From Bryobacteraceae bacterium (lineage in GTDB: Bacteria; Acidobacteriota; Terriglobia; Bryobacterales; Bryobacteraceae), in assembly GCA_965277855.1 (NCBI GenBank), contig OZ255847.1:3312557-3376556 (forward strand): a stretch of DNA of 64,000 nt, in the 5' to 3' direction. Positions 18,335 through 36,075 of this stretch are shown here, piece by piece; position 1 is the first letter of the stretch; the number at the start of each line of letters is the position of its first letter. The position numbers were made by a program, and so were the translations under genes. Under the pieces are notes generated by a model. It did no database searches, was not told where the DNA came from, and saw only the letters and a program-made list of their open reading frames with translations.

Positions 18335-18384
18335 AGTCAGCCTTTTACACAAACCACCTGACGCAACGTGTGGACAATTTCCAC

Positions 18385-19408: not shown

Positions 19409-19417
19409 GAATTTATT

Positions 19418-20446
19418 TTATGGGCTATAGAGGCCTCCAGCTGCATTCAATATTTCCTTCATTTCCTTTCGCAGTTCACTCGGCGAGACGACCTCGACCG
19501 CATCGCCCCATCCGAGAATCCAGCGACGAATTTCGAAAGGTCCGCCCGCCCGGAACGCGAGTTGGACAGCGCCCTCCGGCAGATCTGTGAGTTCCTGACT
19601 CGGATGCCACAGGCGCTCGTGCACATAGGGCGCTTGATCCGCCCGGAAGCGGAGAACGACGCTCATAGGCTCTTGCCAGGAAACGCCGAACGCATCCTCG
19701 CGACACTTCTGCGGACTGAATCCGGGATCTATCTCGAATTCCGTGTCCAGGAGGCTCACTGACGATAGCCGGTCAACCGAAAGTGTGGCAGTGGCCGTGT
19801 GCTTTGGCACCTGTCCGACCACATACAAGCCTCCGCCTACGAACAAAAGACGGTACGGATCGAACTCATAAGTCTTTGGTTCCGGTCGCGATGGCTTCCG
19901 GTAAGTGACGCGGCACCTTCGCTTGCGGAGAATCGCCTCAATCAAGAGCGCGATTTGGGGTTCGTGAGGGCGAAAATCTTTCGCGCCACAGGTCCACGTG
20001 TCGAACTTTTCGGCCACGCTGGGCGGCACTGCGCCGGGTGACGATTCCACCAGAGCTTGCAGCTTGAACACGGCTGCCGCTAGTGAGTCACTGGCCGGCA
20101 GCGCCGCCTGCGCTTGCCCGGCAGCAAACAGCAACGCGTCCAGTTCCTGCGGCGAAAAACGAATATCGGGTATCTGCGATGAGAGCAGCCGCGGTCGGGA
20201 TAGACGGCCCTGTTCGTCGCCCGCAATGGGATAACCGGCGTCTTCAAGAGCGCGCAAGTCACGACAAATGGTTTCCCGGCGGGTTCCGAACTGAGCCGAA
20301 AGTTCACGAATGGTTGGGGCTTGCTCTTGCACCAACATTCGAAGCAGTGCCAAGATGCGTACGATCTGCCGTTCGCGGCGAGCTTTGGACGAGCGCGGAC
20401 GCGTTTCGCTGCTTCGCCGTTCCTCCCGTGACTGCCGTGTACGCAT
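19418..20446 (-). CDS. HTH-WYL domain transcriptional regulator
   Basis: 342 aa. N-terminal HTH (ILALLRMLVQEQAPTIRELSAQFGTRRETICRDLRALEDAGYPI). WYL-type core (CRVTYRKPSRPEPKTYEFDPYRLLFVGGGLYVVG). C-terminal WCX-like extension. Confidence 0.8.
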   Translation of the reverse strand: MRTRQSREERRSSETRPRSSKARRERQIVRILALLRMLVQEQAPTIRELSAQFGTRRETICRDLRALEDAGYPIAGDEQGRLSRPRLLSSQIPDIRFSPQELDALLFAAGQAQAALPASDSLAAAVFKLQALVESSPGAVPPSVAEKFDTWTCGAKDFRPHEPQIALLIEAILRKRRCRVTYRKPSRPEPKTYEFDPYRLLFVGGGLYVVGQVPKHTATATLSVDRLSSVSLLDTEFEIDPGFSPQKCREDAFGVSWQEPMSVVLRFRADQAPYVHERLWHPSQELTDLPEGAVQLAFRAGGPFEIRRWILGWGDAVEVVSPSELRKEMKEILNAAGGLYSP

Positions 20447-20620
20447 CTATCCTGCATATCGGGCGCTGTGGCAATTTTCTTTAAAGCTCCAGTACCAGGA
20501 CGTTCTCGAAAACTTTCTCTGAGTGAACAACTGTGACGCTGGATCGCACAGAGGGAAACTAGCCTGAAAGGAACTTATGCCACACCTTTCTCAACAGACC
20601 GCTGCATTCCTGTCCCGGGG

Positions 20621-22177
20621 ATGAGCAAACGACGAATGTGGAATGGAACGCCCGGCATTGACAGCCTTTTGCGCAAACTCAAGAGCAATCCGGAAAATCG
20701 CAAGCCGAAGGAGGCGGCCGGATTCGTCATATCCGAAACCCCGGATCTGTTTGCCAACAACGATAACCTGCGTGAAATTACCCGCGTGCGCGATGCTGTC
20801 CGCGATCTTCGTCGAGACGCGAAGGCCATTGATGTAGAAGACGAGTCGCTTACTCGGGCCTGTGAAGCGGATTTCCGCCGCTGCTGCCTTTTGATCTGCG
20901 GACGGATTATCGGCGGACAGAAGCGCGAACTCACCGAGAGAGACCGCTCCTGTTTGGAGCAGGTTCTAGGATTCCCGGTCGATTCGACTGAACTCGCAAC
21001 GGTCAGCGCCGAACTGCGCTCTCGCCCAGTTGCCGAACTCGATGGCCTGTTCCCCATGCTGCTGCGGCGCAAGCTCGACGTCGATACAAAATATCTTGAC
21101 CCGTGCGATTCGCTCATCCGCAAAATCGAGACCATCGCCGAATCGACCGGGAAAATCTACGGAGACAAGCTCGGCAAGCGTGCCAACCTCGCGACACGTG
21201 TCGGCTTACAACTCCGCTGGCTGGTTGATACCGCCAGAGAGCGCCAGGCAGACTCCCCGCCAGACTCTCCGGAGAAAAGCGCGAACGGATTAACCGAGCC
21301 GGTCAATCCAGAAACTCTCGACGACATCAAGGCGGAGCTGATGGGCCTGATCGGCCTGGAACCCGTCAAAAAAGATTTTCTGTCGATCTCGAATCTGCTT
21401 CGAATTCGTCAGCTCCGAAAACAAAACGAGCTGAATACCGATCCTTTATCGCTCCACCTGGTTTTTACCGGTAATCCCGGAACCGGTAAAACGACGGTCG
21501 CCCGGCTTCTGGCGCGTGCGTATCGGGCCTTGGGCGTTCTCTCGAAAGGGCATCTGGTCGAGGTCGATCGCTCCGGACTTGTCGCCGGCTACGTGGGACA
21601 TACCGCGCTCAAGACGAAGGAGGTCGTGAAGCGAGCGTTGGACGGAGTGCTTTTCATAGACGAAGCCTATGCGCTCCTGGGCGAAGGTAAAGACTTTGGA
21701 CCGGAGGCCATCAACACACTCCTTAAGCTGATGGAAGACTATCGTGAACGCCTGATTGTCATCGTAGCGGGCTACACGGAGCCCATGAAGGCGTTTCTTG
21801 AAAGCAATCCCGGACTCAAGTCGCGCTTTAATAAGTTCATTCACTTTGGCGATTACTCCACAGCGGAGATGGCTCAGATCTTCGCATACATGCTCGGCAA
21901 CGCACAGTACCGGGTCACCGATGAGGCGCGCTCGGTGATCGACCCGGCGATGTCGGGACTGCGCCTGGCCGGGAAAGAGCATTTTGGAAATGCACGGGTG
22001 GTTCGGAATCTTGTGGAGCACGTACAGCAGGAGCACGCCAATAGGCTTTCGCCGGTTGCAGAACCAACCACGGCAGATCTGCTTATCATTGAGCGCGCCG
22101 ATATCGAAGCCGCGGCGGCCGCGATGCACTCCCGAAGTGCAAGCGACGAACCTGACGGGGGTTCGAATGGCGAATAG
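20621..22177 (+). CDS. AAA+ ATPase of the CbbX/SpoVK/EccA type with an unassigned ~270-aa N-terminal region
   Basis: 518 aa. Walker A FTGNPGTGKTTVARLLA, Walker B VLFIDEAYAL, and VAGYTEPMKAFLESNPGLKSRF typical of the CbbX/SpoVK clade. The N-terminal half matches nothing I can name. Confidence 0.85.
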   Translation: MSKRRMWNGTPGIDSLLRKLKSNPENRKPKEAAGFVISETPDLFANNDNLREITRVRDAVRDLRRDAKAIDVEDESLTRACEADFRRCCLLICGRIIGGQKRELTERDRSCLEQVLGFPVDSTELATVSAELRSRPVAELDGLFPMLLRRKLDVDTKYLDPCDSLIRKIETIAESTGKIYGDKLGKRANLATRVGLQLRWLVDTARERQADSPPDSPEKSANGLTEPVNPETLDDIKAELMGLIGLEPVKKDFLSISNLLRIRQLRKQNELNTDPLSLHLVFTGNPGTGKTTVARLLARAYRALGVLSKGHLVEVDRSGLVAGYVGHTALKTKEVVKRALDGVLFIDEAYALLGEGKDFGPEAINTLLKLMEDYRERLIVIVAGYTEPMKAFLESNPGLKSRFNKFIHFGDYSTAEMAQIFAYMLGNAQYRVTDEARSVIDPAMSGLRLAGKEHFGNARVVRNLVEHVQQEHANRLSPVAEPTTADLLIIERADIEAAAAAMHSRSASDEPDGGSNGE

Positions 22178-22472
22178 AAAACAGTTTCGCTACGTGGCCC
22201 GTTATGTCCTCCTTTGCTGGATCGGCTTAGCCGGCGTCTATGGCCTCGTGATGGGCATCTACTATCTCTGCCGGAAAGATATCTCGCTCACGATCATGGT
22301 GTCCCAGGCGATTCTATACAGCGCCATGTTTACCGTACTTGGACTCCAACAATACAAACTCCGGCGCGGCCGGAATCAGTTGCACCGCCGCAAAGAAGGC
22401 TGGGGGCTTTCGAAAAGAGAGATGGATGGCGACCTCGACGAATCGGAGGAGATCGATAACGGATGGAACTAA
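22167..22472 (+). CDS. small two-TM membrane protein, translationally coupled to the AAA+ ATPase
   Basis: The ATG at 22167 overlaps the ATPase stop (22175-22177) by 11 nt. 101 aa with two hydrophobic helices (YVLLCWIGLAGVYGLVMGIYYL; LTIMVSQAILYSAMFTVLGL) and a charged C-terminal tail. The ORF-track entry 21984..22472 contains it. Confidence 0.55.
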   Translation: MANRKQFRYVARYVLLCWIGLAGVYGLVMGIYYLCRKDISLTIMVSQAILYSAMFTVLGLQQYKLRRGRNQLHRRKEGWGLSKREMDGDLDESEEIDNGWN

Positions 22473-22529
22473 CGGATCCTGCATTCCAACGAGTGACGAT
22501 CGCGTCTCTCATAAAAACTGTCGTGATGA

Positions 22530-23304
22530 TTAGCTGGGTACTGAGCCGTCCCGAACGGATTGGAGCCGCACCCGAACAAGAAAGTCATTCAGCGGACCGC
22601 GCGAAGTAGGTTCCTCCGGCAGAGTAGACTCGGAGGCCGCCTCTTCGAGCTTCCCGATCAAGCGCCTGTATTCAGCTTCATAAAAACTCCGCGCCTTCGC
22701 ATCAAGCAAGCCGTTTTCTAATCCCAGCATTTTTTTCTCCACCAATTCCGGGAGGTAAGGTAAGCGAAACTCTTCGTTCAGCGTGACGAGGTTGGCCTCT
22801 ATCTTCCCGGTGCGCATGAGGTGTATGCCAGTCAGAATCACACGATAAACATAAAGAAGCGACTTGATGCGCGGCGGGTTTTCCTTTTGAAATAAGTCCC
22901 ACTGCGTCGCAGCGAAACCAAGATAATGATGGCTGTGATGACGGGTGATGCAACCGGTCGCGATCTCTTTTAGCTCGAGGTGTTCTGGTGTGCTGTGTAC
23001 GATCAGCGGCGAGTAAAGCTGCTCCAGAACGTAGCCATTCCTTTTCAGCAGCATCGTGAAGAACTTGAGAATCTCGTGTCACCAGGTCCATTTCGATTCC
23101 GCCACGCACACCCGACACCTCAATCGTGTCCTGCTTTGGCAGCAGGCCAACGGATTCCTTCGCGGGTAGAAGGTGAACGCCGCGCAGGTCATAGTCCGAA
23201 TCTGGGAACGGAAACCCGTACAAATGCGCGCCGCTGATGGTAGCAAACAGCAAAGGGTAAGGATGGCTGGAAGCTTCTGCCTGCAGTAGTTCGAAATCAA
23301 TCAC
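22530..23304 (-). pseudogene. Pol-beta-type nucleotidyltransferase (PF10127/RlaP-like), copy 2, interrupted by a 1-nt frameshift
   Basis: The N-terminal part is in ORF 22702..23304 (ATISGAHLYGFPFPDSDYDLRGVHLL...GIEMDLVT). The rest is in ORF 22530..23054 (..EILKFFTMLLKRNGYVLEQLYSPLIV...). The frames join at about 23072-23080 (rc ...gtgacacgagattctc...). The GTG start overlaps the stop of copy 1 (GTGA). Confidence 0.7.
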
Positions 23305-24197
23305 AGCTGGTACTCCGGCGAAGCAGACGCCCGCCGCGCGCGGATCAGGAAATCGTTGGCGCGCTCATAGTCCGGATGGGCCGGTAGTCGGGTTGAGTCG
23401 AGTGCTTCATCAAGTTCGCGATGGAGAGCAAGGCGCCATCGCTCGACTTCTTCCCACGCCACTTCCCCACGGCGAATTGCTAAGAGCCGTTTGCGGTATT
23501 CCTCGACTCGGAGAGGTACGAAGCCGTGCTTCAAAACTGCTACGCCGGAAAGAAGCAGGCGAATCAAATGCATCACGTGCTTCCAACGTATTTGCCCGCT
23601 ACTCCGAAGATCCTGTTCCAGCTTCTTGAATTGCGAAAGTACGTACGCGTTATACGTGCGATGAACGTATTGCGAGAGAAAGATATGCCGCAAATCAATC
23701 AGCTCTTGGGCAATCGGAGTACAGGTTTCCACCAGGGGTGAATAAAGGCACTCCAGGGCGTTCGGATTCGCTTTCAGAGCAAGACGAATGAACTTTTCGA
23801 TTTCCCAATAGGCTTCTTCATTATCCGTTTCCAACTGCTCGGGAACGCTGGCAAGTGACCAGGCAAGTTCGGCCGGGGGCAGGTAGAAACCACGACGGTC
23901 CGTGTCAGAACCTCCTTGAGTCAGCCCGTAGGCGGTCGAACCGACGATGCAGCGATAAATCACAAAGCGATAGAGTCCTGTTGAATCGGCCGCTCCCGGC
24001 ACTTCCGCCTGCACGTGCTTGAAGATACTGAGTTCGGCCCGTCGAAAGCTTTCCTCGGGACCATCCGCAAAGCGAACGCGATAGCGGTGGTCTGGACCGC
24101 TCGGACTATAAGCCACAATGCCGACCCGGCCGCCGAGTCTGGTCAGCACCTTCGTTCCTTCCGGGATGACAAGGTGGGTCTGATTCTCGCGCTGCAA
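23301..24197 (-). CDS. Pol-beta-type nucleotidyltransferase (PF10127/RlaP-like), copy 1, with ~75-aa N-terminal extension
   Basis: 298 aa with a TTG start. NTase signature VGSTAYGLTQGGSDTDRRGFYL, then NALECLYSPLV and a helical C-terminal half. It is a paralogue of copy 2. It starts 34 nt downstream of the jetD stop on the same strand. Confidence 0.7.
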   Translation of the reverse strand: MQRENQTHLVIPEGTKVLTRLGGRVGIVAYSPSGPDHRYRVRFADGPEESFRRAELSIFKHVQAEVPGAADSTGLYRFVIYRCIVGSTAYGLTQGGSDTDRRGFYLPPAELAWSLASVPEQLETDNEEAYWEIEKFIRLALKANPNALECLYSPLVETCTPIAQELIDLRHIFLSQYVHRTYNAYVLSQFKKLEQDLRSSGQIRWKHVMHLIRLLLSGVAVLKHGFVPLRVEEYRKRLLAIRRGEVAWEEVERWRLALHRELDEALDSTRLPAHPDYERANDFLIRARRASASPEYQL

Positions 24198-24231
24198 TTT
24201 CGCCTACCTTTGAGCGAGTTCCAACCTTCGG

Positions 24232-25452
24232 CTACAGTTTACGAGACCCGACTTCCTGGTGCGCGGCCAGCGCCCGCAACGCACTGTTAAACCAGCTGAA
24301 CGAAATCCGTTCCTGTTCGAGCCGAACACTGTCGCCCATCACGTCGTCCTTCAAATCCCTGAACAAGGAATGTTCCGAATGCGTGAGCCGGCTGAGCACG
24401 CCCTCATATGGGCCTTCTTCAGTCACCCAAAGTCCGCGATGCGCGAGCAGGGTCTCGCGATCCATCAGGAACGCTTGCACTTCAGGAAAATTCGCACGCA
24501 GACGATCGAGAATGGCAAACCCGTGCGTATCGATGTCACCCCAGTAATAAAGCGGTTTCTCTTTCAGCCACCCGGCTTCCGCCAGAAGGGGAACACCATA
24601 GCCCAATCCGAAGATCACCAGGCTACCGGGTATCTCAGGAAACGCCAGGCCATTGATTTCGTTCTCGGTAATAAACACTCTTTCAACCGGAATCGACAGC
24701 TGAACAAACTGGTCGACGGGAACACTTAAATCGCTCAAGCCCTGAATCTGCAGCCGATCGTCGAGGATGCGAAACCGGATCAAAGGCGGTTTGGCGATCA
24801 GGCCGTAACGCTCTTCAAAACTCTTCGAGCGCCCGGCCAGCGTGGCCTCCGCAGTCTCTGGAAGCACTCGATCGAGCAGCTCAGACAACAGACCTTTGCG
24901 CGCCTCGATGAACTTGGTATCCACGCCAGGTATTTCGAGTTGGCGAAGATAGAGCGGCGCACCCGAACGATCCGCAAACCAGGTGAGGATGGCTAGAATC
25001 CGGTCCCAGTCGTCGGCATGATTGAGCGCGGTAAATGGACGCCGAGCAAACCAGTCCTCTAACGCCGGGAATCGACTTATGCTTTCCTCGACCAGACGCT
25101 GGAAGCAGTTAGCTTCGGATTGCTTGCCAATCAGGCGAGTGGCATCGTTTTTAGTCGGCAGGATGATTGCGGCCGGTACACGATTGTGCCCCAGAGTGCG
25201 ATGCTTTATTTGCGCCCATTGAATCTCGTACCCGAAATCCCGCGTGGCCTTGCTGCCCTCTTCGAGATTTTTGATCCACTTTCGAACCTCATCAAAGCGG
25301 TCTGAAAGAGCAGCCGCATCCGGTTTTTTGAAGCGCATTTTCAGAGGAAATTCGAGCTGACCGTCGCCACCGGTTCTCAACAGCCGTCCTGATTCCCAAA
25401 ATCGCTCCACCTGCTGCCTGATAGCGGCTGGTGCGGTCCATTCCATGGACAT
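24232..25452 (-). CDS. jetD: Wadjet JetD (Toprim-like nuclease subunit, DUF2220-type C-terminus)
   Basis: About 406 aa counted from the ATG at 25452, which lies 1 nt after the jetC stop. The ORF-track start at 25494 overlaps jetC. The C-terminal VFITENEINGLAFPE...VIFGLGYG...LYYWGDIDTHGFAILDRLR is the Toprim-like acidic motif of JetD/MksG proteins. Confidence 0.85.
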   Translation of the reverse strand: MSMEWTAPAAIRQQVERFWESGRLLRTGGDGQLEFPLKMRFKKPDAAALSDRFDEVRKWIKNLEEGSKATRDFGYEIQWAQIKHRTLGHNRVPAAIILPTKNDATRLIGKQSEANCFQRLVEESISRFPALEDWFARRPFTALNHADDWDRILAILTWFADRSGAPLYLRQLEIPGVDTKFIEARKGLLSELLDRVLPETAEATLAGRSKSFEERYGLIAKPPLIRFRILDDRLQIQGLSDLSVPVDQFVQLSIPVERVFITENEINGLAFPEIPGSLVIFGLGYGVPLLAEAGWLKEKPLYYWGDIDTHGFAILDRLRANFPEVQAFLMDRETLLAHRGLWVTEEGPYEGVLSRLTHSEHSLFRDLKDDVMGDSVRLEQERISFSWFNSALRALAAHQEVGSRKL

Positions 25453-25453
25453 C

Positions 25454-28400
25454 TTAGGCGCTGCGAGCGTCCCGTTCAGCCCGGTATTCTTCAATCGTCA
25501 AATTGCGCAGCATGGATTGCCGGCCCTCGTGATTATGTACGAATCCTACGCTTGCCACAAACGGTTCGATGATATGGATCTTCTGCAGCGGAGTAACAAT
25601 CAGTAACTGCAGATTCAGCCGCTTGAACAAGTCGAGTCCGTAGCGGGCCGATTCATCCGAGCCCCGTCCGAAAGCCTCATCGATCACCACAAACCGGAAA
25701 GAGCGCAAGCGTTCCTTGTTCCACTCGAGCCCAAACTGATAGGCAAGGCTGGCGGCCAGCACGGTATAGGCAAGCTTCTCTTTCTGGCCGCCTGATTTGC
25801 CGCCCGAGTCGGTATAGTGTTCGAACTCGCGGTCGTCTTCCCGCCACCGTTCGGACGCCGAGAAAGTGAACCACTCGCGCACATCAGTCACTTTCTCTTT
25901 CCATCGTTTATCTAACTGCGCGCTGCCTTCACGCCCGCGGAAACGCTCGATGATCGCCTTGACGTTAAGAAATTTCGATTCTGAATATTCCTCGTCGTAA
26001 GATCCGGTCAACGTGCCCTCGGTACAAGCCCGCAGGTCCTGGTGAAAATCCCGAATCTCTACATCGGTATTCGGCTCGGCTTCGAGTGTGATGTAGCGGC
26101 CCGGGTTGTAATCGATCTGTTGCAGGGATTTGTTGATCAGTTCGATACGCCCGCGAATCGCCTCCCGTTCGCGATAGAGCTGCGATTGAAAATTGGCCAC
26201 TTCGCGAATCGTGTTCTCGTTGAGCAACTCTTTAAATCGCGCCTCAAACCGCGGCAGATCGTCCGACGCAAGTTGGTTCAGCATCCCGCGGTATTCTTCC
26301 GCCGCCTGGATACTGGCATCGGCCTCTTGCGTTTCGAGCGGATACCGGGCACGATACGATTCCATCGCCTTCACAATTTGCTCGGAGAGCCGGGCGATCT
26401 TCTTATCTTCCGCGTCGATTCTTGTCTGTATCCACTCCCGCATTTCTCTTTCGCGGTTGTCGCAGGATTCAACGGTTACGCTCTGTTCCCCTAATGCTCC
26501 GCGGGCCATGTCATCGAGCCGTGGAAATTCCTTAGCCGTGACTTCATCCGGCACAGCCGCTAAGATCTCCTGGCACTCCATCGCTTGAGACTGAGCATTT
26601 TCGAGCTTGTGCCCGGCAAGCGTGTTTTGCTGGTGATACTGCTCCAGCCTTCGCTCCGACTCCTCGAGCAATTTTTCCAAGCCCGCCAGCTGGCCCTGCA
26701 GAGTGCGCAAAATATCCGACCCCTGCTCCAACTCCCGGCGCTCCGCCTCTAACCGCTCAATCTCGATCATCGGCGATTTCCAATCCAGATCGCGGAAGCT
26801 TTGAAAAACAGAGAGCCGGTGCAGCACCAGCAGCCGCTCTTGCAACGCCTTGCCCTCCGCCTGCAGAGTTGCAATACGCCCCGAACTTTTCTGCAGGCGC
26901 GTATTAAGCTCTCTGGCCTGCGTTTCCAGAGCAGCGATTTTGGCTTCGTTCGACCACCCCAGCACAAAGCGGGAGCGATCATCGATGCGGTAACGGTCGT
27001 CCTTCTCGTGACGTTCCCCGACGCCCTTGATCTGGCCTGACCGCGTGATGGCCTGACGTTCGCGCCGGAACAGATCCAGCGAATCGCAGCAAACGTAGTT
27101 GAATCGCCGTCTGATCTCCGCGTCCAACCAGTCATAAAAGACCGGGTGCGGCTTGATGCCGATTTTGTGAACTAGCGAGGACGCGTCGATCGCGGGCTGC
27201 ATCTGAAAATGCTCGGCTGTTTGCTGCCCCCGGATGCGGTAATACACCAACCGTCCTCCGAGATGGGTGCGGTCCACAGACTGCGCCAATGCGGCATAAT
27301 GCGCATCCGGAACCAGCAGGGACAAACCGAAATTGTGCAGAACGCGTTCCATCGCACCTTCCCAATCGCGCTCTTCGGGACGAACCTGCAGGAGCTCTCC
27401 GGCGAAAGGCAACGTCTCCTCCGTAAGCCCCGTCGCGCGGCATAGTTGCTCGCGCAGATCGAGCATGTTCCTGGGGAGATTCGAACGGCGTCGGCGTAGC
27501 GACTGAAGTTCGGATCTGAGTTCCTGTTCCTGCTCCTCCAATTGACGCAACTCGACAATCGCTTCCGTCAGCTCGTTCTGTTTTTCGGCCTGGCGGATTT
27601 CCGTTGCCCCCTTCTCCGCGGCGATGTCACGCTGGTTAGCCAAGAAAATCTCTTCATTCACCACGCCGGGAAGGGCCGCCGTGCCTGCGAGCGCGTCGTA
27701 ATCTCCCGCTCGCCTCGCCCGTTGCTCCTTCTCTCTTTGATTCTCGAATATCTCCGCCTTGATCCGTTCCAGCCGGTTCCCGCCATTCTCGGCGATCGCG
27801 GTCTTTACCTCGTCGCGTTCGAGACGGCGTGCTCTCTGCTTCTCGGAAAGCGACTCGATCCGGCCGGCCACGACGCTCAACTCGGCCTCTAACTTGGCCG
27901 TGCGCTCTCGCAGCAGCGCCAGTTTCAGGAAAGCCGACCACGGCCGCAACATGCTCCGGCTGGTGCGCAGCAGCGTGACTTCGCCCGCCAGCTGCTCCAG
28001 CGTTTTGCAGTCGGTCACCAGTGGAGTCAAGCGGTTTATCTGATCCTTGGCCTTGAGCACTGCCTCGTGCGCCCGGTTCAGATCGTCGAAGTGATTGACA
28101 AGAGCCGCAATGCGAGACTCAACCGGGAATGATTCCAGCATGTGTTCCCGTACAAAATCGGTCAGATTTCCCACGGATTTCATGGAAACTGTCTGGTTGA
28201 ATAAATCCAGCGCCTGTTCGTTCTCAATTCCAAAGCGGCGGCGGTACGCCGCCCCAAACGGTGGAAAGGTGTCGAACAATTCCACATCCGGCATTGCGCG
28301 CAGCCGTTTCCTCAGATCCTTTACTTCGGACCCAAAGCCGGCTAAGTGCTCCGCAATCGCTAGCGGACGGTCGGCCACCACATAAAGACGCGCCGGTTGC

Positions 28401-28912
28401 TCCTGCACGTCCTTGATCCAGAAGATCTGCGTCAACGTGACGGTTCGATCGAGATCCTGGTTGTAAAAGCGGCCCAGGATCACCGAATAGCAGCGATGAT
28501 CGCGCAACGCGACAGGCCGGACCGAAACGCTCGATTCGCCTCTCTCCGATTTATAGTGCCCGAATACATAACTCCTGAGATTCCTCTCGCGGTTGTCCGC
28601 TCCGGCCGCTTTGTTGTAGACAATCTTCTGCGGGGGCACTAACAGCGTGGTAATTGCATCGACAAAGGTCGACTTACCCGAACCGATGTCGCCTGTGAGC
28701 AAGGCATTCTCTCCGCCGAAATCGAGCGCCCAAACCTGGTTGTGGAAAGTTCCCCAGTTATAGATCTCAAAACGGTTCAGGCGAAAACCGGACCGCTCGG
28801 CGGATGAGCACAGGTCCAGCATTTCGGATTTGGCAACCGCGTCAAGCTCTTTCAAAGCTCCTCCCTTCCGCCTCGGGTTGTGATCCGGCCTCTGGTTGTG
28901 ATCCCGAAACAT
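25454..28912 (-). CDS. jetC: Wadjet JetC (SMC-like ABC ATPase)
   Basis: About 1120-1152 aa. N-terminal FRLNRFEIYNWGTF...LLTGDIGSGKSTFVDAI (Walker A). Long Glu/Arg/Leu-rich coiled-coil-like middle. C-terminal DSGGKSGGQKEKLAYTVLAASLAY (signature) and FRFVVIDEAFGRGSDE (Walker B). The true start may be the ATG at 28822, 19 nt after the jetB stop, rather than 28912. Confidence 0.9.
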   Translation of the reverse strand: MFRDHNQRPDHNPRRKGGALKELDAVAKSEMLDLCSSAERSGFRLNRFEIYNWGTFHNQVWALDFGGENALLTGDIGSGKSTFVDAITTLLVPPQKIVYNKAAGADNRERNLRSYVFGHYKSERGESSVSVRPVALRDHRCYSVILGRFYNQDLDRTVTLTQIFWIKDVQEQPARLYVVADRPLAIAEHLAGFGSEVKDLRKRLRAMPDVELFDTFPPFGAAYRRRFGIENEQALDLFNQTVSMKSVGNLTDFVREHMLESFPVESRIAALVNHFDDLNRAHEAVLKAKDQINRLTPLVTDCKTLEQLAGEVTLLRTSRSMLRPWSAFLKLALLRERTAKLEAELSVVAGRIESLSEKQRARRLERDEVKTAIAENGGNRLERIKAEIFENQREKEQRARRAGDYDALAGTAALPGVVNEEIFLANQRDIAAEKGATEIRQAEKQNELTEAIVELRQLEEQEQELRSELQSLRRRRSNLPRNMLDLREQLCRATGLTEETLPFAGELLQVRPEERDWEGAMERVLHNFGLSLLVPDAHYAALAQSVDRTHLGGRLVYYRIRGQQTAEHFQMQPAIDASSLVHKIGIKPHPVFYDWLDAEIRRRFNYVCCDSLDLFRRERQAITRSGQIKGVGERHEKDDRYRIDDRSRFVLGWSNEAKIAALETQARELNTRLQKSSGRIATLQAEGKALQERLLVLHRLSVFQSFRDLDWKSPMIEIERLEAERRELEQGSDILRTLQGQLAGLEKLLEESERRLEQYHQQNTLAGHKLENAQSQAMECQEILAAVPDEVTAKEFPRLDDMARGALGEQSVTVESCDNREREMREWIQTRIDAEDKKIARLSEQIVKAMESYRARYPLETQEADASIQAAEEYRGMLNQLASDDLPRFEARFKELLNENTIREVANFQSQLYREREAIRGRIELINKSLQQIDYNPGRYITLEAEPNTDVEIRDFHQDLRACTEGTLTGSYDEEYSESKFLNVKAIIERFRGREGSAQLDKRWKEKVTDVREWFTFSASERWREDDREFEHYTDSGGKSGGQKEKLAYTVLAASLAYQFGLEWNKERLRSFRFVVIDEAFGRGSDESARYGLDLFKRLNLQLLIVTPLQKIHIIEPFVASVGFVHNHEGRQSMLRNLTIEEYRAERDARSA

Positions 28913-29480
28913 AATCGCGATATTCGGAAAGCCGCTGATCGAACTCCTTCAGCCACTGGGCATCGACGAAGGCTTTCAAAATACGGCGCACCTCGAAGCG
29001 ATCGTCCTGTCCGCGCAGTTTCCGTAGAAAGCCCATCTCCAACACTCGATTGATATGGCCGTCGACGCGGTCAAGTAAGCGGGCTTCATTGGCGGTCTCC
29101 GGCAGGAAAACACCGATCATATCGACAATGTTGTCGCGGCTTACAATCAAGCGCGTCTCGCCGCTGATGGCATCGAACTCAGCCAGCCGTTTGCGCAGCA
29201 GCGCGAGCAGCAGGCTTACCGGATAGCTCAGTTGACGGCGCGGCACCAGCCGGGGGATTTCCTGCTCTCCTTCCGCCGCGGTTCGCTGGCGCAGATAGGC
29301 ATATCCTTCCGCCTCATCCAGGATCATCTCCAAACCAAGCAGCGCAACGTACTCGCGCACCCTCGCTTGCAGGTTGAGCAGCGATTGCCACAGGGCGGGA
29401 TTGTCCTCCTGATAGCTCACGCCTTTCATTAACGCGATCAGAATGGGGGAAATATCGTTGTTTGTATCGGAAGAATCCAA
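28842..29480 (-). CDS. jetB: Wadjet JetB (DUF4194-type, MksE-like)
   Basis: 212 aa with a TTG start. ILIALMKGVSYQEDNPALWQSLLNLQARVREYVALLGLEMILDEAEGYAYLRQR matches the conserved N-terminal pattern of DUF4194 proteins. Its position between jetA and jetC also fits. Confidence 0.8.
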   Translation of the reverse strand: MDSSDTNNDISPILIALMKGVSYQEDNPALWQSLLNLQARVREYVALLGLEMILDEAEGYAYLRQRTAAEGEQEIPRLVPRRQLSYPVSLLLALLRKRLAEFDAISGETRLIVSRDNIVDMIGVFLPETANEARLLDRVDGHINRVLEMGFLRKLRGQDDRFEVRRILKAFVDAQWLKEFDQRLSEYRDYVSGSQPEAGSQPEAEGRSFERA

Positions 29481-29492
29481 GCCGTGCCTTAC

Positions 29493-30956
29493 TCAGTTGA
29501 CCGTGGCGAGCCGGCGCGTTTGCCGGCTGAAAATGACTAGCGGCAAAGTAGCTTGCCGCCTATTTCCATTCTCGTCTGTCCAGGACAGTGTCTGCTTATG
29601 GCCGTCGTCGATAATCGCGGCATCCGATTCCGCGGCGATACTGAGATAGGCGACCAATTCAGCCAGCCCGTGTTCGAGCGGCGCATCCTCGACGAGTTCA
29701 GCCAGCGATAATTGGTTCCGCGTTTGGAGCATGCGTCGGATGTGAGCCGTCAATCGGAGCTTGTCCACGTAGATCTGCTCAAACAGAGCGTCAGCGGGCA
29801 GGTCTTGCGATCCTTCCACCACGATATGCTCCGCCAGAGTGGTCCTCAGAGGCGGACGAAACAGCGGGCGATCCATACTGAGGTCAACCGCCGGGGCGGC
29901 TTCATCCAGTTCCATAAACGGCCCGTCCGGCAGCCTTCCGCGCAACGGAATTGCGAGTTGCTCCAATTCCCGAATGAGTTGCAGGATGCGCCGGTTCTCG
30001 ATCCACATTTGATCGTCGAGATAGCGGCGCAGCTGCTCAGACAGGCGTGCAACCGTGCGCTGTGCGACTTCGCCTGCCGCCATCCAGTCATAGTGAATGC
30101 GCAGCAACCGGCGGTCGGGCGCGAGGTCCCGGATCGCGTCCAATGCGAAGACCGCCTGCAGTAATTCAGAGAGCTCCGACTGCCGCGTAGGCGACAACAG
30201 GAAATCCCAAAACGCCCGAAAACTCTTGCCCTGATCGGAGTCCATGATGGTGTCCCGGTCTCCGAAAATCTCCTCCAGCAGCGATCCCTTCCCTGCTTCC
30301 CAAGTCGCGATTCGCTCGCGCACGGCGCGGTCCAGTGTCCGGAAGTTCTGCTCCACCACACGGAAATCGGAGAGCAGTCCCCGAGCCATGTCGGACATTT
30401 GCAGGAACCGATCTTTCACTTGTGTTGCGTCCAGCAGAGAAATTCGGCCTTCGCGAATTTGCCGAATATCCGCGTCGATTTGAGCTTTTCGCTTTTCCAG
30501 TTCGGCAAGCCGCGCGGCGGGGTCCACTTCCGTTCCCTCGGTGATCTCACGCAGCAAAAAGAAAACGGTTTTCAAACGCGATTCCGCCCCCACGAACTGC
30601 TGCTGCTCGAGACTGGCCAGCCAATCGATGGCTTTCTCGGTAGCGGGAGTAATGTCGAAGTGCGGTTCATCGCTATCCGCCGGGTAATACTTGCGGAGCC
30701 AACCATGTTCGTCGGAAGACCAGTCGTCCAGATATTGCGCGGCCGTCTTGGGGAACAGGTTTTCTGCCAACTGCTCGCCCAGATAGAACAGATAGTCTTC
30801 GAGGCGCGACACCAGTTCCGGTCGAGCCAACGTGCGAACGTTCGGTTGAATGAAAGTGCGGTGCAGAAAACTGATGATCAACGGGGCGTGTTCGGCAGCG
30901 AGTAAACGCCAGGTCGGATGCTTTCGTCTCAGGGCTTGGAGGGTGAGATATTCCAT
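29493..30956 (-). CDS. jetA: Wadjet JetA (DUF3375-type, MksF/kleisin-like)
   Basis: 487 aa. HPTWRLLAAEHAPLIISFLHRTFIQPNVRTLARPELVSRLEDYLFYL matches the typical DUF3375 N-terminus. It is the first gene of the four-gene set in the canonical A-B-C-D order. Confidence 0.8.
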   Translation of the reverse strand: MEYLTLQALRRKHPTWRLLAAEHAPLIISFLHRTFIQPNVRTLARPELVSRLEDYLFYLGEQLAENLFPKTAAQYLDDWSSDEHGWLRKYYPADSDEPHFDITPATEKAIDWLASLEQQQFVGAESRLKTVFFLLREITEGTEVDPAARLAELEKRKAQIDADIRQIREGRISLLDATQVKDRFLQMSDMARGLLSDFRVVEQNFRTLDRAVRERIATWEAGKGSLLEEIFGDRDTIMDSDQGKSFRAFWDFLLSPTRQSELSELLQAVFALDAIRDLAPDRRLLRIHYDWMAAGEVAQRTVARLSEQLRRYLDDQMWIENRRILQLIRELEQLAIPLRGRLPDGPFMELDEAAPAVDLSMDRPLFRPPLRTTLAEHIVVEGSQDLPADALFEQIYVDKLRLTAHIRRMLQTRNQLSLAELVEDAPLEHGLAELVAYLSIAAESDAAIIDDGHKQTLSWTDENGNRRQATLPLVIFSRQTRRLATVN

Positions 30957-30962
30957 CGAGCC

Positions 30963-31364
30963 TCAAACGCGATGTATGCGTTCCAGACCGGGCCAACGGT
31001 CGAAGTCGCGATCGAACGTCAAGATAGATCGAATCTCCCGCCGTTCCATTACCGCGATGTGAACCGAGTCACGAGCGGAGAATAGACCGGGATCCTGAAT
31101 AATTTCGCCGGCGCGCTTAACATCGGTTTTTTCGATCGGGAAGACATCATCGACGAGATTAAGTGTAAGATCTAGTGCTGGCCGGATAGCCTCACGACGG
31201 CCAATACTTGTATAACGGTGCAAGATTTCCTGGAGTACCTCGGCGTCCGTAACCAGACGGTGTCCTCCTGCGATCAGTTTTTCGAGCAGAATCTGCGCTT
31301 CGGATTTATGGGGGTGCGGCCCCCCAACCAAGTACATCGGAATATTGGAATCGATGAAAATCAA
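30963..31364 (-). CDS. vapC: PIN-domain toxin VapC (module 1)
   Basis: 133 aa. PIN acidic residues lie in context (MIFIDSN, TDAEVLQEILH, SARDSVHIAVM, TFDRDFD). Its stop is only 6 nt upstream of the jetA start. Confidence 0.85.
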   Translation of the reverse strand: MIFIDSNIPMYLVGGPHPHKSEAQILLEKLIAGGHRLVTDAEVLQEILHRYTSIGRREAIRPALDLTLNLVDDVFPIEKTDVKRAGEIIQDPGLFSARDSVHIAVMERREIRSILTFDRDFDRWPGLERIHRV

Positions 31365-31606
31365 TCCTGATATCCGCGCTCGATCTCGCCCAGCATCTGC
31401 TCCATGTCCGCAGTGGGAAATGAATGCTCCACAGCGCGCCGGATAGATTTCAATTTAACTTCGGGAGCAATGACTGGCTGCCGCGAACGTGCCTCGCGCA
31501 ACGCACGGCGGACCCATTCGCCCACCGCGAGATGTTCACGCTGCGCTAACTGCTGAATATCGAGGAGTTCCTGATCAGGAAGGAGGACCTGGAGTCGCAT
31601 ACTCAT
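31361..31606 (-). CDS. vapB: ribbon-helix-helix antitoxin VapB (module 1)
   Basis: MSMRLQVLLPDQELLDIQQLAQREHLAVGEWVRRALREA is RHH-like. It overlaps vapC by 4 nt. I prefer the ATG at 31606 over the ORF-track TTG at 31657. Confidence 0.7.
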   Translation of the reverse strand: MSMRLQVLLPDQELLDIQQLAQREHLAVGEWVRRALREARSRQPVIAPEVKLKSIRRAVEHSFPTADMEQMLGEIERGYQD

Positions 31607-31617
31607 AGTGTGAGTAT
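31599..31617. promoter_or_regulatory. 7-bp inverted repeat (atactca-tagtg-tgagtat) at the vapB1 start, possible operator
   Basis: Read from the sequence. It lies in the ~100-bp region between the two divergent vapBC modules. A second short inverted repeat, gtgac-N8-gtcac, lies at about 31650-31667. Confidence 0.3.
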
Positions 31618-31703
31618 AACATGGTCGTTGACTGAGTATATTGTCGCACGTGACCAATCGAAGTCACACTAAAAAGTATAGACTACCTATATACTAAGGA
31701 TTC

Positions 31704-31970
31704 GTGACCAAGACAGCGAAACTCTTCATCAACGGCGGCAGCCAAGCCGTTCGACTGCCGGCCGAATTTCGTTTCGATGGCGACGAAGTATTTGTCCGGC
31801 GGGACGAGCGCACCGGCGAAGTAATCCTATCCAGGAAAACCAGTTGGAGCACGTGGGACGAGTATTTCGAGCTTCGGGACCTTGGCAAAGCGGTGCCGGA
31901 AGAGTTTATGGCCGATCGTCCACTGAATGTCCCCTTCGATCGGAACGATCTCTTTAGTGACGAGAAGTGA
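31704..31970 (+). CDS. vapB: AbrB/SpoVT-type antitoxin VapB (module 2)
   Basis: 88 aa. GTG start preceded by AAGGA. TKTAKLFINGGSQAVRLPAEFRFDGDEVFVRRDERTGEVIL is the classic SpoVT/AbrB-like VapB pattern. Confidence 0.8.
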   Translation: MTKTAKLFINGGSQAVRLPAEFRFDGDEVFVRRDERTGEVILSRKTSWSTWDEYFELRDLGKAVPEEFMADRPLNVPFDRNDLFSDEK

Positions 31971-32374
31971 GTGAACTCTTCATGCTCGATACCGATACTG
32001 TGAGCTACGTCATCAAAGGGAGCGCCCCGCAGATCGACGATCATCTTAGAAGCTTAAACGTGACGCAGGTCTGCATCTCGGCCATCACGCGCGCTGAGTT
32101 GCGCTTTGGCGTCGCGAGGCTCCCAAGACTGAATCGCCTAGCGGCCGGGGTCGAGAAATTCTTGAGCGGCGTTCCAACATTACCCTGGGACGAAGTTGCG
32201 GCTGATCAGTGCGCTACGGTACGAGCCGACCTGGAGCGCGGTGGAACCCCAATTGGAATCATGGATACCCTGATCGCCGCCCATGCCAAAGCCCTGAAGG
32301 CGATCCTCGTCACGAATAATGTGAACCACTTTCGTTTAGTCAAAGGACTGTCGATAGAAAACTGGGCAGAGTAG
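31967..32374 (+). CDS. vapC: PIN-domain toxin VapC (module 2)
   Basis: 135 aa with a GTGA overlap with vapB2. PIN residues: MLDTDT, ITRAELRFG, IMDTLIAAHA, VTNNVNHF. Confidence 0.85.
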   Translation: MSELFMLDTDTVSYVIKGSAPQIDDHLRSLNVTQVCISAITRAELRFGVARLPRLNRLAAGVEKFLSGVPTLPWDEVAADQCATVRADLERGGTPIGIMDTLIAAHAKALKAILVTNNVNHFRLVKGLSIENWAE

Positions 32375-32444
32375 CAGCTGAACGCTTGGCCTGCAAAAGC
32401 TGATACCATACCCCTGCAATTCGCTTTCTAAGGAGCGCAAAAGT

Positions 32445-33614
32445 ATGGCAATCCCAACCGAGAATGTTGGTTCTCTCCCCCGACCTGCCAGGCTGCAGGC
32501 GGCTCTGGCCGATTATGATGCAGGCAAGATCACCCACGAACAACTGCAGCGCGAGCAGGATATCGCGTGCCGCGATTCGATCGAGCGCATGGAAGCGGCA
32601 GGCTCACCGATCGTCTCCGATGGAGAGCAGCGCGCCTCCAGCTTCGCGACCTACCCGCTAACCGATACACTCGGGGGTACCGGGATGGCTAAAAATCTGG
32701 CAGCCGACGGTCAGTATTTCGCGATTTTCAATGATGGTCACCATCGCCAGCTTCCACGGCTGGTGGCCGGTCCGTTCCGCTACAAAACATTCGCGTCTGA
32801 ATACGTGAAAGAAGCCAAGAAGATCGCGACCAAACCGCTCAAGCAAGCCGTCATCGCTCCATCCATGTTGTCGCTGCTCTATCCGCTCGATGGTGAACTC
32901 CCCGGCTACTCACGCGAACAGTTCCTCGCCGACCTGTGCGACGAATGCGAAAAAGATATCCGGCAATGCTTTGCCGCCGGCGCAGCGCGCGTTTCCATCG
33001 ACTTCACCGAAGGCCGTCTCGCCTGCCGCAACGACCCAAACAACTCCTGGACCGGTCGCGGCATGCTCAAACAATTCATCGAACTGAACAACCGCGTCAT
33101 CGACCGCTTCTCCCCCGAAGAACGGAAGAACATCGGCATTCATACTTGTCCCGGAGGCGATTGCGACTCCACCCACAGCGCCGACGTCGATTACGCCGAA
33201 CTGCTTCCTAGCATGTTCCAGATGAACGCCGGCTACTTCCTCATGCAACTCGCCAGCGAGCCGGATAAGGAGCGAGTCTACAAGTTAGTGGGCGAGCACA
33301 GCCGCGCCGATGCCAATGCCGTCAAGCAGGTCTGCTTCATCGGCGTCATCAATCCGCTGAATGCTCGCGTCGAAAGCGCGGAAGAGGTGGCCGGTGATCT
33401 CATTACCGCTTCTAAATACATCCCGGTCGATCGACTTGGTTCGACTGACGATTGCGGCTTCTCGCCCTTCAGCGTCGACAACAAACCAAAACACGGCTCG
33501 CCCGACGCGGCCCGTGACATCGCTTTCCAAAAAATCGCAGCACGCGTAAAAGGGACCGCGCTGGCGTCTGAAAAATTGACCGGCCAGAAACAGGCGGCTG
33601 CGCAGGGAACCTAA
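32445..33614 (+). CDS. cobalamin-independent methionine synthase II family (MetE C-terminal-like) protein
   Basis: 389 aa. IPTENVGSLPRP at the N-terminus. Zn-ligand-like IHTCPGGD and DDCGFSPF are typical of the MetE-like/UROD-fold methyltransferase family. Confidence 0.75.
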   Translation: MAIPTENVGSLPRPARLQAALADYDAGKITHEQLQREQDIACRDSIERMEAAGSPIVSDGEQRASSFATYPLTDTLGGTGMAKNLAADGQYFAIFNDGHHRQLPRLVAGPFRYKTFASEYVKEAKKIATKPLKQAVIAPSMLSLLYPLDGELPGYSREQFLADLCDECEKDIRQCFAAGAARVSIDFTEGRLACRNDPNNSWTGRGMLKQFIELNNRVIDRFSPEERKNIGIHTCPGGDCDSTHSADVDYAELLPSMFQMNAGYFLMQLASEPDKERVYKLVGEHSRADANAVKQVCFIGVINPLNARVESAEEVAGDLITASKYIPVDRLGSTDDCGFSPFSVDNKPKHGSPDAARDIAFQKIAARVKGTALASEKLTGQKQAAAQGT

Positions 33615-34570
33615 GCTGTTTTCTCCACCAGTGCCCCCGAGTAAACCGGCCAGAGCCAGTTGGCGCAACCGGCTATTCGCCCCCGTGTTGCATCTGTGTA
33701 GAGTGCCCGCAGCTTCTGAGTCAAGGTGCCCACCTGGCCCGTTCCCACTGGACGGTGATCGATCTCCAGCACTGGCGTGACCTCCACGGCTGTGCCCGTA
33801 AAGAACAACTCATCGCAGACGTACAATTCGCTCCGATCAATCGATCGCTCGACCGTCTGAACGCCAAGATAGCGCTGCGCCAGTTCAATCACCGATGCCC
33901 GAGTAATGCCCTCCAGAATGTTATCTGTTCCGGGCGGCGTCACCAGTTTGCCATCGCGCACCATAAATAAGTTCGATGTCGCGCCCTCTGCTACGTGTCC
34001 GTCATCGTTTAGAAAAATAGCCTCATCATGGCCGCTGCGCCGCGCTTCATCGAGCGCCAGCGCGCTATTCACGTACGCGCCACAAATCTTCGCTCGACCC
34101 GGAATCGCCGTGTCCTGCACGCGCCGCCAGGAAGCCACGCCCGCTCTTACGCCTTCTTTGTCGAGCAGGTACTCGCCAAACGGGAATGCGGTAATCGAAA
34201 AATCATCACTCTCGTCGGCAGCTACACCCACGCGGGCCGCTGATTTATAAGCTAGCGGCCTCACGTATACATGAGTGTGGAAATTGTTGCGGCGGCAAAG
34301 TTCGGCAGTAATTTCGGCCAGACGGGTGGCCGAAGGCGGCACATGAATGCGCAATATGCCGCAATTCTTCTTCCAGCGCTCATAATGTTCCACCAGGCGC
34401 ACCAAGTACAACTCGCGGTCTTGTGACTGGTAGTACCCGCGAATCCCCTCGAACACGCCCGTCCCATAATTCAACGCATGGGTCAGGATGTTGACGTTCG
34501 CCTCCGACAGTCGGACAAAACGGTTCTGAAACCAGACGATCGTGTTGGGGTTTGGCGCTTCGCTATGCAT
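33611..34570 (-). CDS. ilvE: branched-chain amino acid aminotransferase
   Basis: 319 aa. GTGVFEGIRGYY, a class IV aminotransferase core, and ELFFTGTAVEVTPV. Confidence 0.9.
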   Translation of the reverse strand: MHSEAPNPNTIVWFQNRFVRLSEANVNILTHALNYGTGVFEGIRGYYQSQDRELYLVRLVEHYERWKKNCGILRIHVPPSATRLAEITAELCRRNNFHTHVYVRPLAYKSAARVGVAADESDDFSITAFPFGEYLLDKEGVRAGVASWRRVQDTAIPGRAKICGAYVNSALALDEARRSGHDEAIFLNDDGHVAEGATSNLFMVRDGKLVTPPGTDNILEGITRASVIELAQRYLGVQTVERSIDRSELYVCDELFFTGTAVEVTPVLEIDHRPVGTGQVGTLTQKLRALYTDATRGRIAGCANWLWPVYSGALVEKTA

Positions 34571-34635
34571 GATGACTCCTGCTAAGCATCATCTTAGCAG
34601 GAAAGCACCACCTTGGGGTGGTGGCTGTTCTGCGC

Positions 34636-35298
34636 TTAGACAGCTCCGGCATAGACGAAGGGTCTCTGACCGCTGCTCTTCCAGAAGTACGCCAGAATAA
34701 TCACGCTTGCGACCGCCGCATAGGCGCACCACAATGAAGTAAACGCGTATCTCCGAAACGCCATCACCGTCAGCAGGATAATCAAATTCGCCGTGCCGAA
34801 GATGACCATGTCCCTCTCTCTTGAGAAAAACAGCGATCCGCAGGTGGCGATCACATACAAAATTGCCACCGCCGTATTGTCCGTCGCTGCATTGATATAC
34901 ACGATGCTGTTCCGCTCAATCGATACCTGCAGCGGATACGCAGTCAGCGCCCACAAAATATAGAGCGCCGTTAAGCTTCCGACTACCAGAAAGGGCAGCA
35001 TCCGCCTGCGGCACCTTACATCGGGCTCGAACAGCAGCACGCTCAACGGCAGCAGGAATGGCAGCAACCCTTGCGCATACAGCATAAAGGCAGCCGCCAT
35101 GTCGTGCGTTACCACAGGTGACAGCAGTCCATCTAACCCGAGCCAGACGAATCCCTCGGTGAACTGATGAATCGCAAAGAGCATGGGTAGCGACGCAAAC
35201 AACAGTTCGCGCCTGTGCTTCACCTTCGTCAAAGTCACCACCCCGAGTGTTCCCAGAATCCCGCTACCCACGAAGTTCGCTGTCGCTGAGAAGCACAT
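34636..35298 (-). CDS. polytopic membrane protein of unknown function
   Basis: 220 aa with about 6 hydrophobic helices. No catalytic motif was recognised. Confidence 0.5.
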   Translation of the reverse strand: MCFSATANFVGSGILGTLGVVTLTKVKHRRELLFASLPMLFAIHQFTEGFVWLGLDGLLSPVVTHDMAAAFMLYAQGLLPFLLPLSVLLFEPDVRCRRRMLPFLVVGSLTALYILWALTAYPLQVSIERNSIVYINAATDNTAVAILYVIATCGSLFFSRERDMVIFGTANLIILLTVMAFRRYAFTSLWCAYAAVASVIILAYFWKSSGQRPFVYAGAV

Positions 35299-35325
35299 CT
35301 ATCTCTCTCACCGCGGATCGGAGAT

Positions 35326-36075
35326 TTACGACTTTCGTTTAACCGTCAAAGACGCGAACGCCTGGCTGACCGGCATGATCTGCATGGTGTTGATATTCAC
35401 GTGCGCCGGGCGTGTGGCCACCCAATGAATCGCGTCCGCGATATCGTCGGCTGTCAGCGCGTGCGTTCCTTCGTATACCGCCGCCGCCTTTTTCGCGTCG
35501 CCCTTAAACCGCACCTGTGAAAATTCTGTTCCCCCGGCCAGCCCCGGCTGGATGTCCGTCACCCGAATCGGTGTCCCGACCAGGTCCGCCCGCAGATTTA
35601 AGCTGAATTGGTGTACGAACGCCTTCGCCGCGCCGTACACGTTTCCCCCTGGATAAGGCCATTCCGCCGCTGTCGAGCCGATGTTGATGATGTCGCCACG
35701 TCCGCGCTCAATCATCCCCGGCAGCAGCAGTCGCGTCGTGTACATCAGTCCTCTTACGTTGCTATCCACCATCGCGTCCCAATCGTCCAGCTTCGCCGTC
35801 TGTGCCGGATCGAGCCCGATGGCTCCGCCGGCATTATTGACCAGCACGTCTACTTCTGCCCACTCTCCCGCTAAAGCCCCGATCGCTTTCTCCGCCTCAT
35901 CCCGTTTCCCCACATCGAAAATGAGTGGATGAAATGCCTCGCCCAGTTCGCTCTTCAGTTTCTCCAGACGATCCCGCCGGCGTCCGGTCCCAACCACCTT
36001 GGCGCCATCCGCCAAAAACTTGCGCGCTGTAGCTTCCCCAAATCCCGATGTAGTACCCGTAACGAAAACGATCAT
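35326..36075 (-). CDS. SDR family NADP-dependent oxidoreductase (YdfG-like)
   Basis: 249 aa. TGTTSGFG cofactor motif, NNAG, catalytic YGAAK. Confidence 0.85.
   Translation of the reverse strand: MIVFVTGTTSGFGEATARKFLADGAKVVGTGRRRDRLEKLKSELGEAFHPLIFDVGKRDEAEKAIGALAGEWAEVDVLVNNAGGAIGLDPAQTAKLDDWDAMVDSNVRGLMYTTRLLLPGMIERGRGDIINIGSTAAEWPYPGGNVYGAAKAFVHQFSLNLRADLVGTPIRVTDIQPGLAGGTEFSQVRFKGDAKKAAAVYEGTHALTADDIADAIHWVATRPAHVNINTMQIMPVSQAFASLTVKRKS

Follow-up and report, generated by a model that had tools for sequence, protein, structure and literature searches.

An intact type I Wadjet (JetABCD) operon very probably resides in the chromosome of a Bryobacteraceae bacterium

The mechanism of type I Wadjet systems (JetABCD, also named MksBEFG or EptABCD) is described from studied homologs (PMC10586767; bioRxiv 10.1101/2023.11.03.565488). 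In Pseudomonas aeruginosa, an IFDR motif in the N-terminal part of JetB was reported to contact the nuclease subunit JetD (PMC10586767). In MksG, the JetD counterpart of Corynebacterium glutamicum, the E236A and D279A mutations drastically reduced nuclease activity, D279 being a metal ligand, and E349 and E351 were proposed as alternative nucleophiles; in addition, Y258 was proposed as a catalytic tyrosine in actinobacterial homologs and described as not conserved in JetD (PMC10123090). Here we analyzed a stretch of 64,000 nucleotides (nt) from a Bryobacteraceae bacterium (contig OZ255847.1; hereafter the window), in which an initial annotation had placed a four-gene Wadjet system at positions 24232–30956. 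Our analysis reveals that this locus is, with a probability of about 95%, an intact type I Wadjet operon in the chromosome of an uncultured soil member of Bryobacteraceae (Acidobacteriota). What is established directly at the locus is the identity and order of the genes, the full-length match of every protein to its family, the complete set of catalytic motifs, the conservation of the operon in one sister genome and the action of purifying selection.

The open reading frame (ORF) scan of positions 20000–36000, together with the translations, places four and only four long ORFs in 24232–30956, all of them co-directional on the minus strand, running as jetA–jetB–jetC–jetD from 30956 down to 24232 and forming one compact operon (Table 1). 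The co-directional, tightly packed arrangement in A-B-C-D order proposed in the initial annotation, where the strand was left unstated, is thereby confirmed: jetA and jetB are separated by 12 nt, jetC, if read from its TTG start, shares 14 nt with jetB, and a gap of 1 nt lies between the jetC stop and jetD. The longest jetC ORF spans 25454–28912 and encodes 1152 amino acids (aa), and an ATG at 28822 would give 1122 aa; the TTG at 28855, yielding 1133 aa and carrying GGAGG 4 nt upstream, is the most likely start. The first 40 residues read from this TTG are 100% identical in the ortholog of the best related locus (L001), which lies on the 6.58-Mb chromosome OZ255821.1 of a Bryobacteraceae metagenome-assembled genome, hereafter the sister genome. 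This locus is one of 80 related loci obtained by scanning a single genome for each species, from which homologs were extracted and aligned (61 for JetC and 59 for JetD). The longest jetD ORF (24232–25494) encodes 420 aa, and the most likely start is the ATG at 25452, giving 406 aa; the ortholog in the sister genome begins at the next (second) ATG, giving 404 aa.

All four proteins are recognized by Pfam far above the gathering cut-offs. JetA matches DUF3375 (PF11855) at 1.7e-149 over model positions 2–474 of 474, and JetB matches DUF4194 (PF13835) at 4.3e-47 and MksE (PF21980) at 2.6e-20, in agreement with the DUF3375 and DUF4194 patterns assigned to their N-termini in the initial annotation. 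JetC matches AAA_29 (1.2e-22, residues 45–105) and SbcC_Walker_B (1.5e-23, residues 1007–1097), both in the numbering of the 1152-aa ORF, and JetD matches DUF3322 (PF11795) at 6.6e-56 and JetD_C (PF09983) at 5.4e-58. The top PADLOC models are type I for every subunit, namely JetA1 (9.5e-215), JetB1 (5.3e-92), JetC1 (E = 0, 1579 bits) and JetD1 (4.8e-144), with ~93–100% of each model covered (positions 4–1120 of 1123 for JetC1). The type I assignment of all four subunits, first suggested by their domain content, is thus supported at the level of sequence profiles. With E-values from 1e-47 to 0, a chance origin of the four-gene match is excluded. The searches that had been proposed as checks (DUF3375, DUF4194, the ATPase heads, DUF3322 and PADLOC) were all run, and each returned the expected family. 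NCBIfam holds no specific models for the four Jet proteins, and its sole match, SMC_prok_B for JetC, is sub-threshold (35.8 bits versus a cut-off of 567).

Among all PDB sequences, the significant matches are exclusively JetA, JetB, JetC and JetD/MksG chains. JetA matches the JetA chain 8q72_E (1.7e-26), and JetB the JetB chain 8dk1_E (6e-9). JetC aligns over its full length to 8dk2_C of P. aeruginosa (7e-63, residues 23–1122 with 30–1101) and to 8as8_A of Escherichia coli GF4-3 (9e-60). JetD matches MksG of C. glutamicum (8b7f_A, 4e-20), JetD of P. aeruginosa (7til_A, 1.5e-16, residues 8–388 with 22–390) and JetD of E. coli (8q72_M, 7e-13). A closer relationship of JetC to RecN or SbcC, raised in the initial annotation as the outcome that would speak against Wadjet, was not found. 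As compared with the JetC chains (7e-63 to 9e-60), RecN appears in a relaxed PDB scan (E ≤ 10) with an E-value of 0.03 over 54 residues of the P-loop, and none of the matches in that scan is an SbcC, Rad50 or MukB chain. It is vanishingly unlikely that another system of the structural maintenance of chromosomes (SMC) type, either Lamassu or a type II/III Wadjet, has been misread as type I. Such a misreading could draw on the weak LmuB match of JetC (5e-11) and on the marginal JetD2 and JetD3 matches (1e-4 to 1e-5), which are the only type II/III matches in PADLOC; these are, however, partial and fall short of the type I models by more than 100 orders of magnitude, and the window encodes the kleisin, KITE and Toprim partners that Lamassu does not have.

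The motifs quoted in the initial annotation (GDIGSGKST, SGGQKEKLAY, FVVIDEAFGRGSDE and YYWGDIDTHGFAILDRL) are all found verbatim in the translations. The Walker A motif of JetC is located in the N-terminal half of the ATPase head, and the ATP-binding cassette (ABC) signature and the Walker B motif in the C-terminal half. Residues G55, G60, K61 and T63 of Walker A, all nine positions of the signature, and D1059 and E1060 of Walker B are invariant in 61 of 61 homologs. The VVIDEAF segment of Walker B aligns to IILDEAF of E. coli JetC; in VLDQAF of the 8dk1 JetC chain, a glutamine occupies the position of Glu1060. Between the two halves of the head, the middle of JetC is indeed rich in Glu, Arg and Leu, as first described, but as two arms around a compositionally ordinary center: these three residues make up ~40% of residues 231–480 and ~36% of residues 641–960, as compared with ~28% of residues 481–640. 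This profile fits the arm–hinge–arm organization expected of an SMC protein, and the central segment, the presumed hinge, is matched in the alignment with 8dk2 by the middle of the P. aeruginosa protein.

JetD retains the acidic residues of a Toprim nuclease. E263, D306, D308, E379 and E381 are invariant in 59 of 59 homologs, and the RLEQERIS segment is, judging by the aligned motif, likely the counterpart of MksG E349/E351. The glutamate, DxD and ExE elements of the Toprim domain are thus all present; the acidic motif singled out in the initial annotation occupies residues 302–318 of 406, inside the C-terminal domain and not at the end of the protein.

Our comparison with the sister genome reveals collinearity over ~25 kb at 88–93% nucleotide identity, with jetABCD at the same site (92.6%) and JetA 96.7% identical at the amino acid level. 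The next-best loci share 50–66% identity and belong to unrelated lineages, including 'delta proteobacteria'/Myxococcota, Methylococcaceae, Ectothiorhodospiraceae, Burkholderiales and Streptomyces, and JetD homologs of ~44% identity are also carried by very large plasmids (0.48–2 Mb). The A-B-C-D order is kept in 64 of the 80 related loci across many phyla, and most of the others end at contig borders. The scatter of the next-best loci over unrelated lineages is typical of horizontally exchanged defense genes. Because alaS and further housekeeping genes are present in the window, the locus is chromosomal. That setting, the MukBEF-like architecture of JetABC and the MksE match of JetB are what would be expected if the locus encoded a chromosome-organizing condensin of the MksBEF/MukBEF type and not a defense system. 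We consider this extremely unlikely, because a full-length Toprim nuclease gene with intact metal ligands, the feature that separates Wadjet from MksBEF, lies 1 nt from jetC, because all four proteins score best on type I Wadjet models, and because relatives outside the family are dispersed over unrelated phyla in the manner of a horizontally moving accessory system.

Some of the related loci carry 1–3.7 kb inserted between jetA and jetB, namely at positions 11435–13643 in L002, 11435–12404 in L003, 11435–14914 in L004 and 11282–15031 in L069. The insert of L069 encodes an IS66 transposase and a DruA-like protein, that of L002 a co-directional AAA_15 ATPase, and that of L004 co-directional ORFs of 452 and 193 aa with no Pfam match. 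These inserts may represent mobile elements that disrupt the operon or, alternatively, genes that have become part of it.

Between the window and the sister genome, the ratio of nonsynonymous to synonymous substitution rates (dN/dS) is 0.063 for jetA, 0.088 for jetB, 0.087 for jetC and 0.259 for jetD, at dS values of 0.17–0.28. As these ratios are well below 1 for all four genes, they indicate purifying selection on the whole operon. Decay of the operon into a non-functional remnant is accordingly hard to reconcile with the data and very unlikely, given that the four reading frames are also intact and of family-typical length and that all catalytic residues are kept; the signs that could be read in favor of decay are the ratio for jetD (0.26), the highest of the four, and the state of the adjacent accessory genes, among which an RlaP paralog is frameshifted, rtcR is 5'-truncated and the vapBC toxin–antitoxin pair is lost in the sister genome.

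By analogy with the studied homologs, complex formation, loop extrusion, size-selective cleavage and plasmid restriction would be expected of the encoded proteins. Dimers of the SMC ATPase JetC would be closed by the JetA kleisin and carry JetB KITE dimers, giving a dimer of motor units that would load on DNA and extrude it using ATP. On a small circle (below roughly 50–100 kb), the two motors would converge on the last unextruded segment, stall, rearrange and bend the DNA. The CAP-like arms of a JetD dimer would then attach it to the JetC heads, and both strands would be cut with no sequence specificity at the Toprim sites (Glu263 and Asp306/Asp308), after which the linearized plasmid would be lost. 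Linear DNA and replicons above ~100 kb would escape, and the chromosome would be too large for complete extrusion. No feature of the locus sequence contradicts this homolog-based scheme.

Several observations weigh against an intact and active type I system. The activity of acidobacterial Wadjet, this locus included, is predicted from homologs, and the Jet proteins are distant from the studied systems of E. coli, P. aeruginosa and C. glutamicum, with many substitutions in the full-length alignments; for JetB, the best PDB match reaches only 6e-9. Compared with its E. coli and P. aeruginosa counterparts (~250 aa), JetB also lacks ~40 residues at the N-terminus. In its clade, JetB measures ~200–215 aa and has a short N-terminal tail, the median longest ORF being 215 aa over 75 related loci. 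An IFDR-like N-terminal motif ([ILVMF]FD[RK]) is found neither in JetB of the window nor in any of these 75 loci, and the recruitment of JetD may therefore differ in detail. The dN/dS of jetD is about three to four times that of the other three genes (0.06–0.09). Furthermore, the sequence upstream of jetA yielded no convincing sigma-70 promoter, and the promoter and terminator scan of 22000–32500 returned no more sites than shuffled sequence and does not delimit the transcription unit.

A tentative and rather unlikely extension of these observations is that the short-JetB clade recruits or licenses JetD via a contact other than the one cross-linked in P. aeruginosa, and that the operon is perhaps transcribed from, and stabilized by, the vapBC pair abutting jetA. 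If so, the short-JetB, vapBC-linked system would be a variant in regulation or assembly, not in principle. The C-terminal tail of JetB contains an 18-bp tandem duplication (GSQPEA-GSQPEA), located just ahead of the ribosome-binding site and start codon of jetC; the sister genome has a single copy.

The genes around the operon differ between the two genomes. In place of the toxin–antitoxin pair abutting jetA (30963–31657), the sister genome has ~240 bp (L001 9722–9961) with only a vapB-like remnant of 54% identity; the 98-aa antitoxin of the window has no match in Pfam, NCBIfam or PADLOC, and PADLOC likewise returned no matches for RlaP, VapB/C or RtcA. Of the two RlaP nucleotidyltransferase genes downstream of jetD, the window has an intact first copy (298 aa) and a second copy that a frameshift divides into ORFs 22702–23304 and 22530–23054; in the sister genome (16736–18261), a deletion of ~115 bp disrupts the first copy, and the second is complete at 247 aa. 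This pattern reflects either the loss of a different paralog in each genome or assembly errors. Further along, the 5.2-kb block from RtcA to the AAA+ ATPase (17330–22525) corresponds to ~150 bp in the sister genome and contains no rtcB, and its RtcR fragment lacks the CARF domain together with some of the AAA domain. On the far side of jetA, a 1126-aa ORF without a match in Pfam, NCBIfam or PADLOC is kept in the sister genome inside a block of 89.7% identity, and a protein with repeated CarboxypepD_reg domains lies in a 1.9-kb segment (40666–42548) that has no counterpart there. Scans for tRNA genes and Rfam elements across the window returned nothing, and thus no tRNA-linked integration site or RNA element marks the borders of an island; nor does the only close genome delimit them, because it has the operon at the same site.

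The co-directional vapBC and RlaP genes could be taken as accessory parts of a Wadjet variant, co-transcribed with jetABCD in one larger unit, as all eight genes are on one strand with very short gaps and no terminator-like site is found between jetD and the first RlaP gene. This arrangement is improbable, however, as homologs of RlaP, VapB and VapC occur nearby in 0 of the 79 other Wadjet loci, the second RlaP gene is frameshifted in the window, and the sister genome has no vapC and a broken first RlaP gene next to an intact jetABCD. RlaP, vapBC, WYL, AAA and RtcA were each considered as Wadjet accessory genes and rejected: beyond the sister genome, the search returned only weak WYL matches (32–33% identity) in 3 of 79 loci. 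Because the neighbors are absent near other Wadjet loci and are broken or missing in the sister genome while jetABCD is intact, we regard the flanking genes as a decaying accessory region that is unrelated to the system and does not belong to it.

Table 1. Coordinates of the jet genes, their sequence motifs and the neighboring genes in the window
Feature	Position	Strand	Description
jetA	29493–30956	-	kleisin subunit; 487 aa, ATG start
jetB	28842–29480	-	KITE (MukE-like) subunit; 212 aa, TTG start
jetC	25454–28855	-	SMC-family ABC ATPase; 1133 aa from TTG at 28855
jetD	24232–25452	-	nuclease subunit; 406 aa from ATG at 25452; N-terminal DUF3322 (CAP-like arm) and C-terminal Toprim domain
JetC Walker A, GDIGSGKST	28667–28693	-	residues 55–63 of 1133 aa; Lys61; read from sequence
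JetC ABC signature, SGGQKEKLA	25769–25795	-	residues 1021–1029; counterpart of SGGEKEIIA in JetC of E. coli and P. aeruginosa by alignment
JetC Walker B and D-loop, FVVIDEAFGRGSD	25655–25693	-	residues 1055–1067; catalytic Glu1060
JetC central segment, presumed hinge between coiled-coil arms	26936–27415 (approximate limits)	-	residues ~481–640; from composition
JetD Toprim Glu263 (ITENE)	24664–24666	-	pairs in the alignment with E236 of C. glutamicum MksG (position 342 of the SUMO-fusion chain)
JetD Toprim DxD, Asp306-Ile-Asp308 (YYWGDIDTHGF)	24529–24537	-	Asp306 aligns to MksG D279
JetD ExE, Glu379-Gln-Glu381 (RLEQERIS)	24310–24318	-	aligns to LRIEQERI of MksG in 8b7f
JetB C-terminal tail, 18-bp tandem duplication (GSQPEA-GSQPEA)	28870–28904	-	Tandem Repeats Finder: period 18, 1.9 copies
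vapC-like PIN toxin	30963–31364	-	stop 6 nt before jetA ATG
Putative antitoxin (vapB-like), 98 aa	31361–31657	-	pairs with the PIN toxin upstream of jetA
Second, divergent MazE/PIN pair	31704–32374		46 bp from the pair abutting jetA
Two tandem RlaP (PF10127) nucleotidyltransferase paralogs	22530–24197	-	first begins 34 nt after jetD
CbbX/SpoVK/EccA-like AAA+ ATPase	20621–22177		N-terminal ~230 aa without family match
WYL/WCX regulator	19418–20446		
RtcR (sigma-54 activator), C-terminal half only	18683–19408		5'-truncated gene; PADLOC model positions 290–522 of 523
RtcA	17318–18487		
1126-aa ORF	37124–40504	-	
549-aa protein	40829–42478		repeated CarboxypepD_reg/transthyretin-like domains

The locus is a further, canonical member of a well-known family that standard defense finders would call automatically; Wadjet is understood no differently in its light, and the locus would not surprise a specialist and raises no new question. 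Its practical implication is the prediction that small circular shuttle plasmids transform this lineage poorly, and genetic tools for the lineage could accordingly be built on linear or integrative DNA, on large replicons or on a jet knockout. In addition, the divergent set of short-JetB orthologs provides material for comparative structural work.

The closest described systems are the type I Wadjet systems of E. coli and P. aeruginosa and MksBEFG of C. glutamicum, all represented in the PDB. The type I Wadjet of E. coli GF4-3 (PDB 8as8, 8bfn, 8q72 and the 9qx series) has the same four subunits in the same order, with full-length homology for JetC (9e-60), JetA (1.7e-26), JetB (2e-5) and JetD (7e-13); the Walker A, signature and Walker B motifs of JetC are common to both, and the catalytic glutamate mutated in the E248A cryo-EM structure lies in the Toprim motif shared with JetD of the window (bioRxiv 10.1101/2023.11.03.565488). 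By comparison, the proteins of the window are distant in sequence, JetB is ~40 aa shorter N-terminally and the host is an acidobacterium. The type I Wadjet of P. aeruginosa PA14 (PDB 8dk1–8dk3 and 7til) provides the best PDB match of JetC (7e-63) and JetB (6e-9), whereas the IFDR motif of its JetB has no equivalent in the window. MksG of C. glutamicum MksBEFG (PDB 8b7f) is the best PDB match of JetD (4e-20); its metal-binding E236 and D279 occupy the positions of Glu263 and Asp306, and both proteins have the ExE motif. The MukBEF and MksBEF condensins share the SMC–kleisin–KITE architecture with the locus but are distinct from it in having no Toprim nuclease gene. Lamassu (LmuB) also employs a coiled-coil ABC ATPase in defense, but it operates without the kleisin, KITE and Toprim partners that accompany JetC in the Bryobacteraceae operon.

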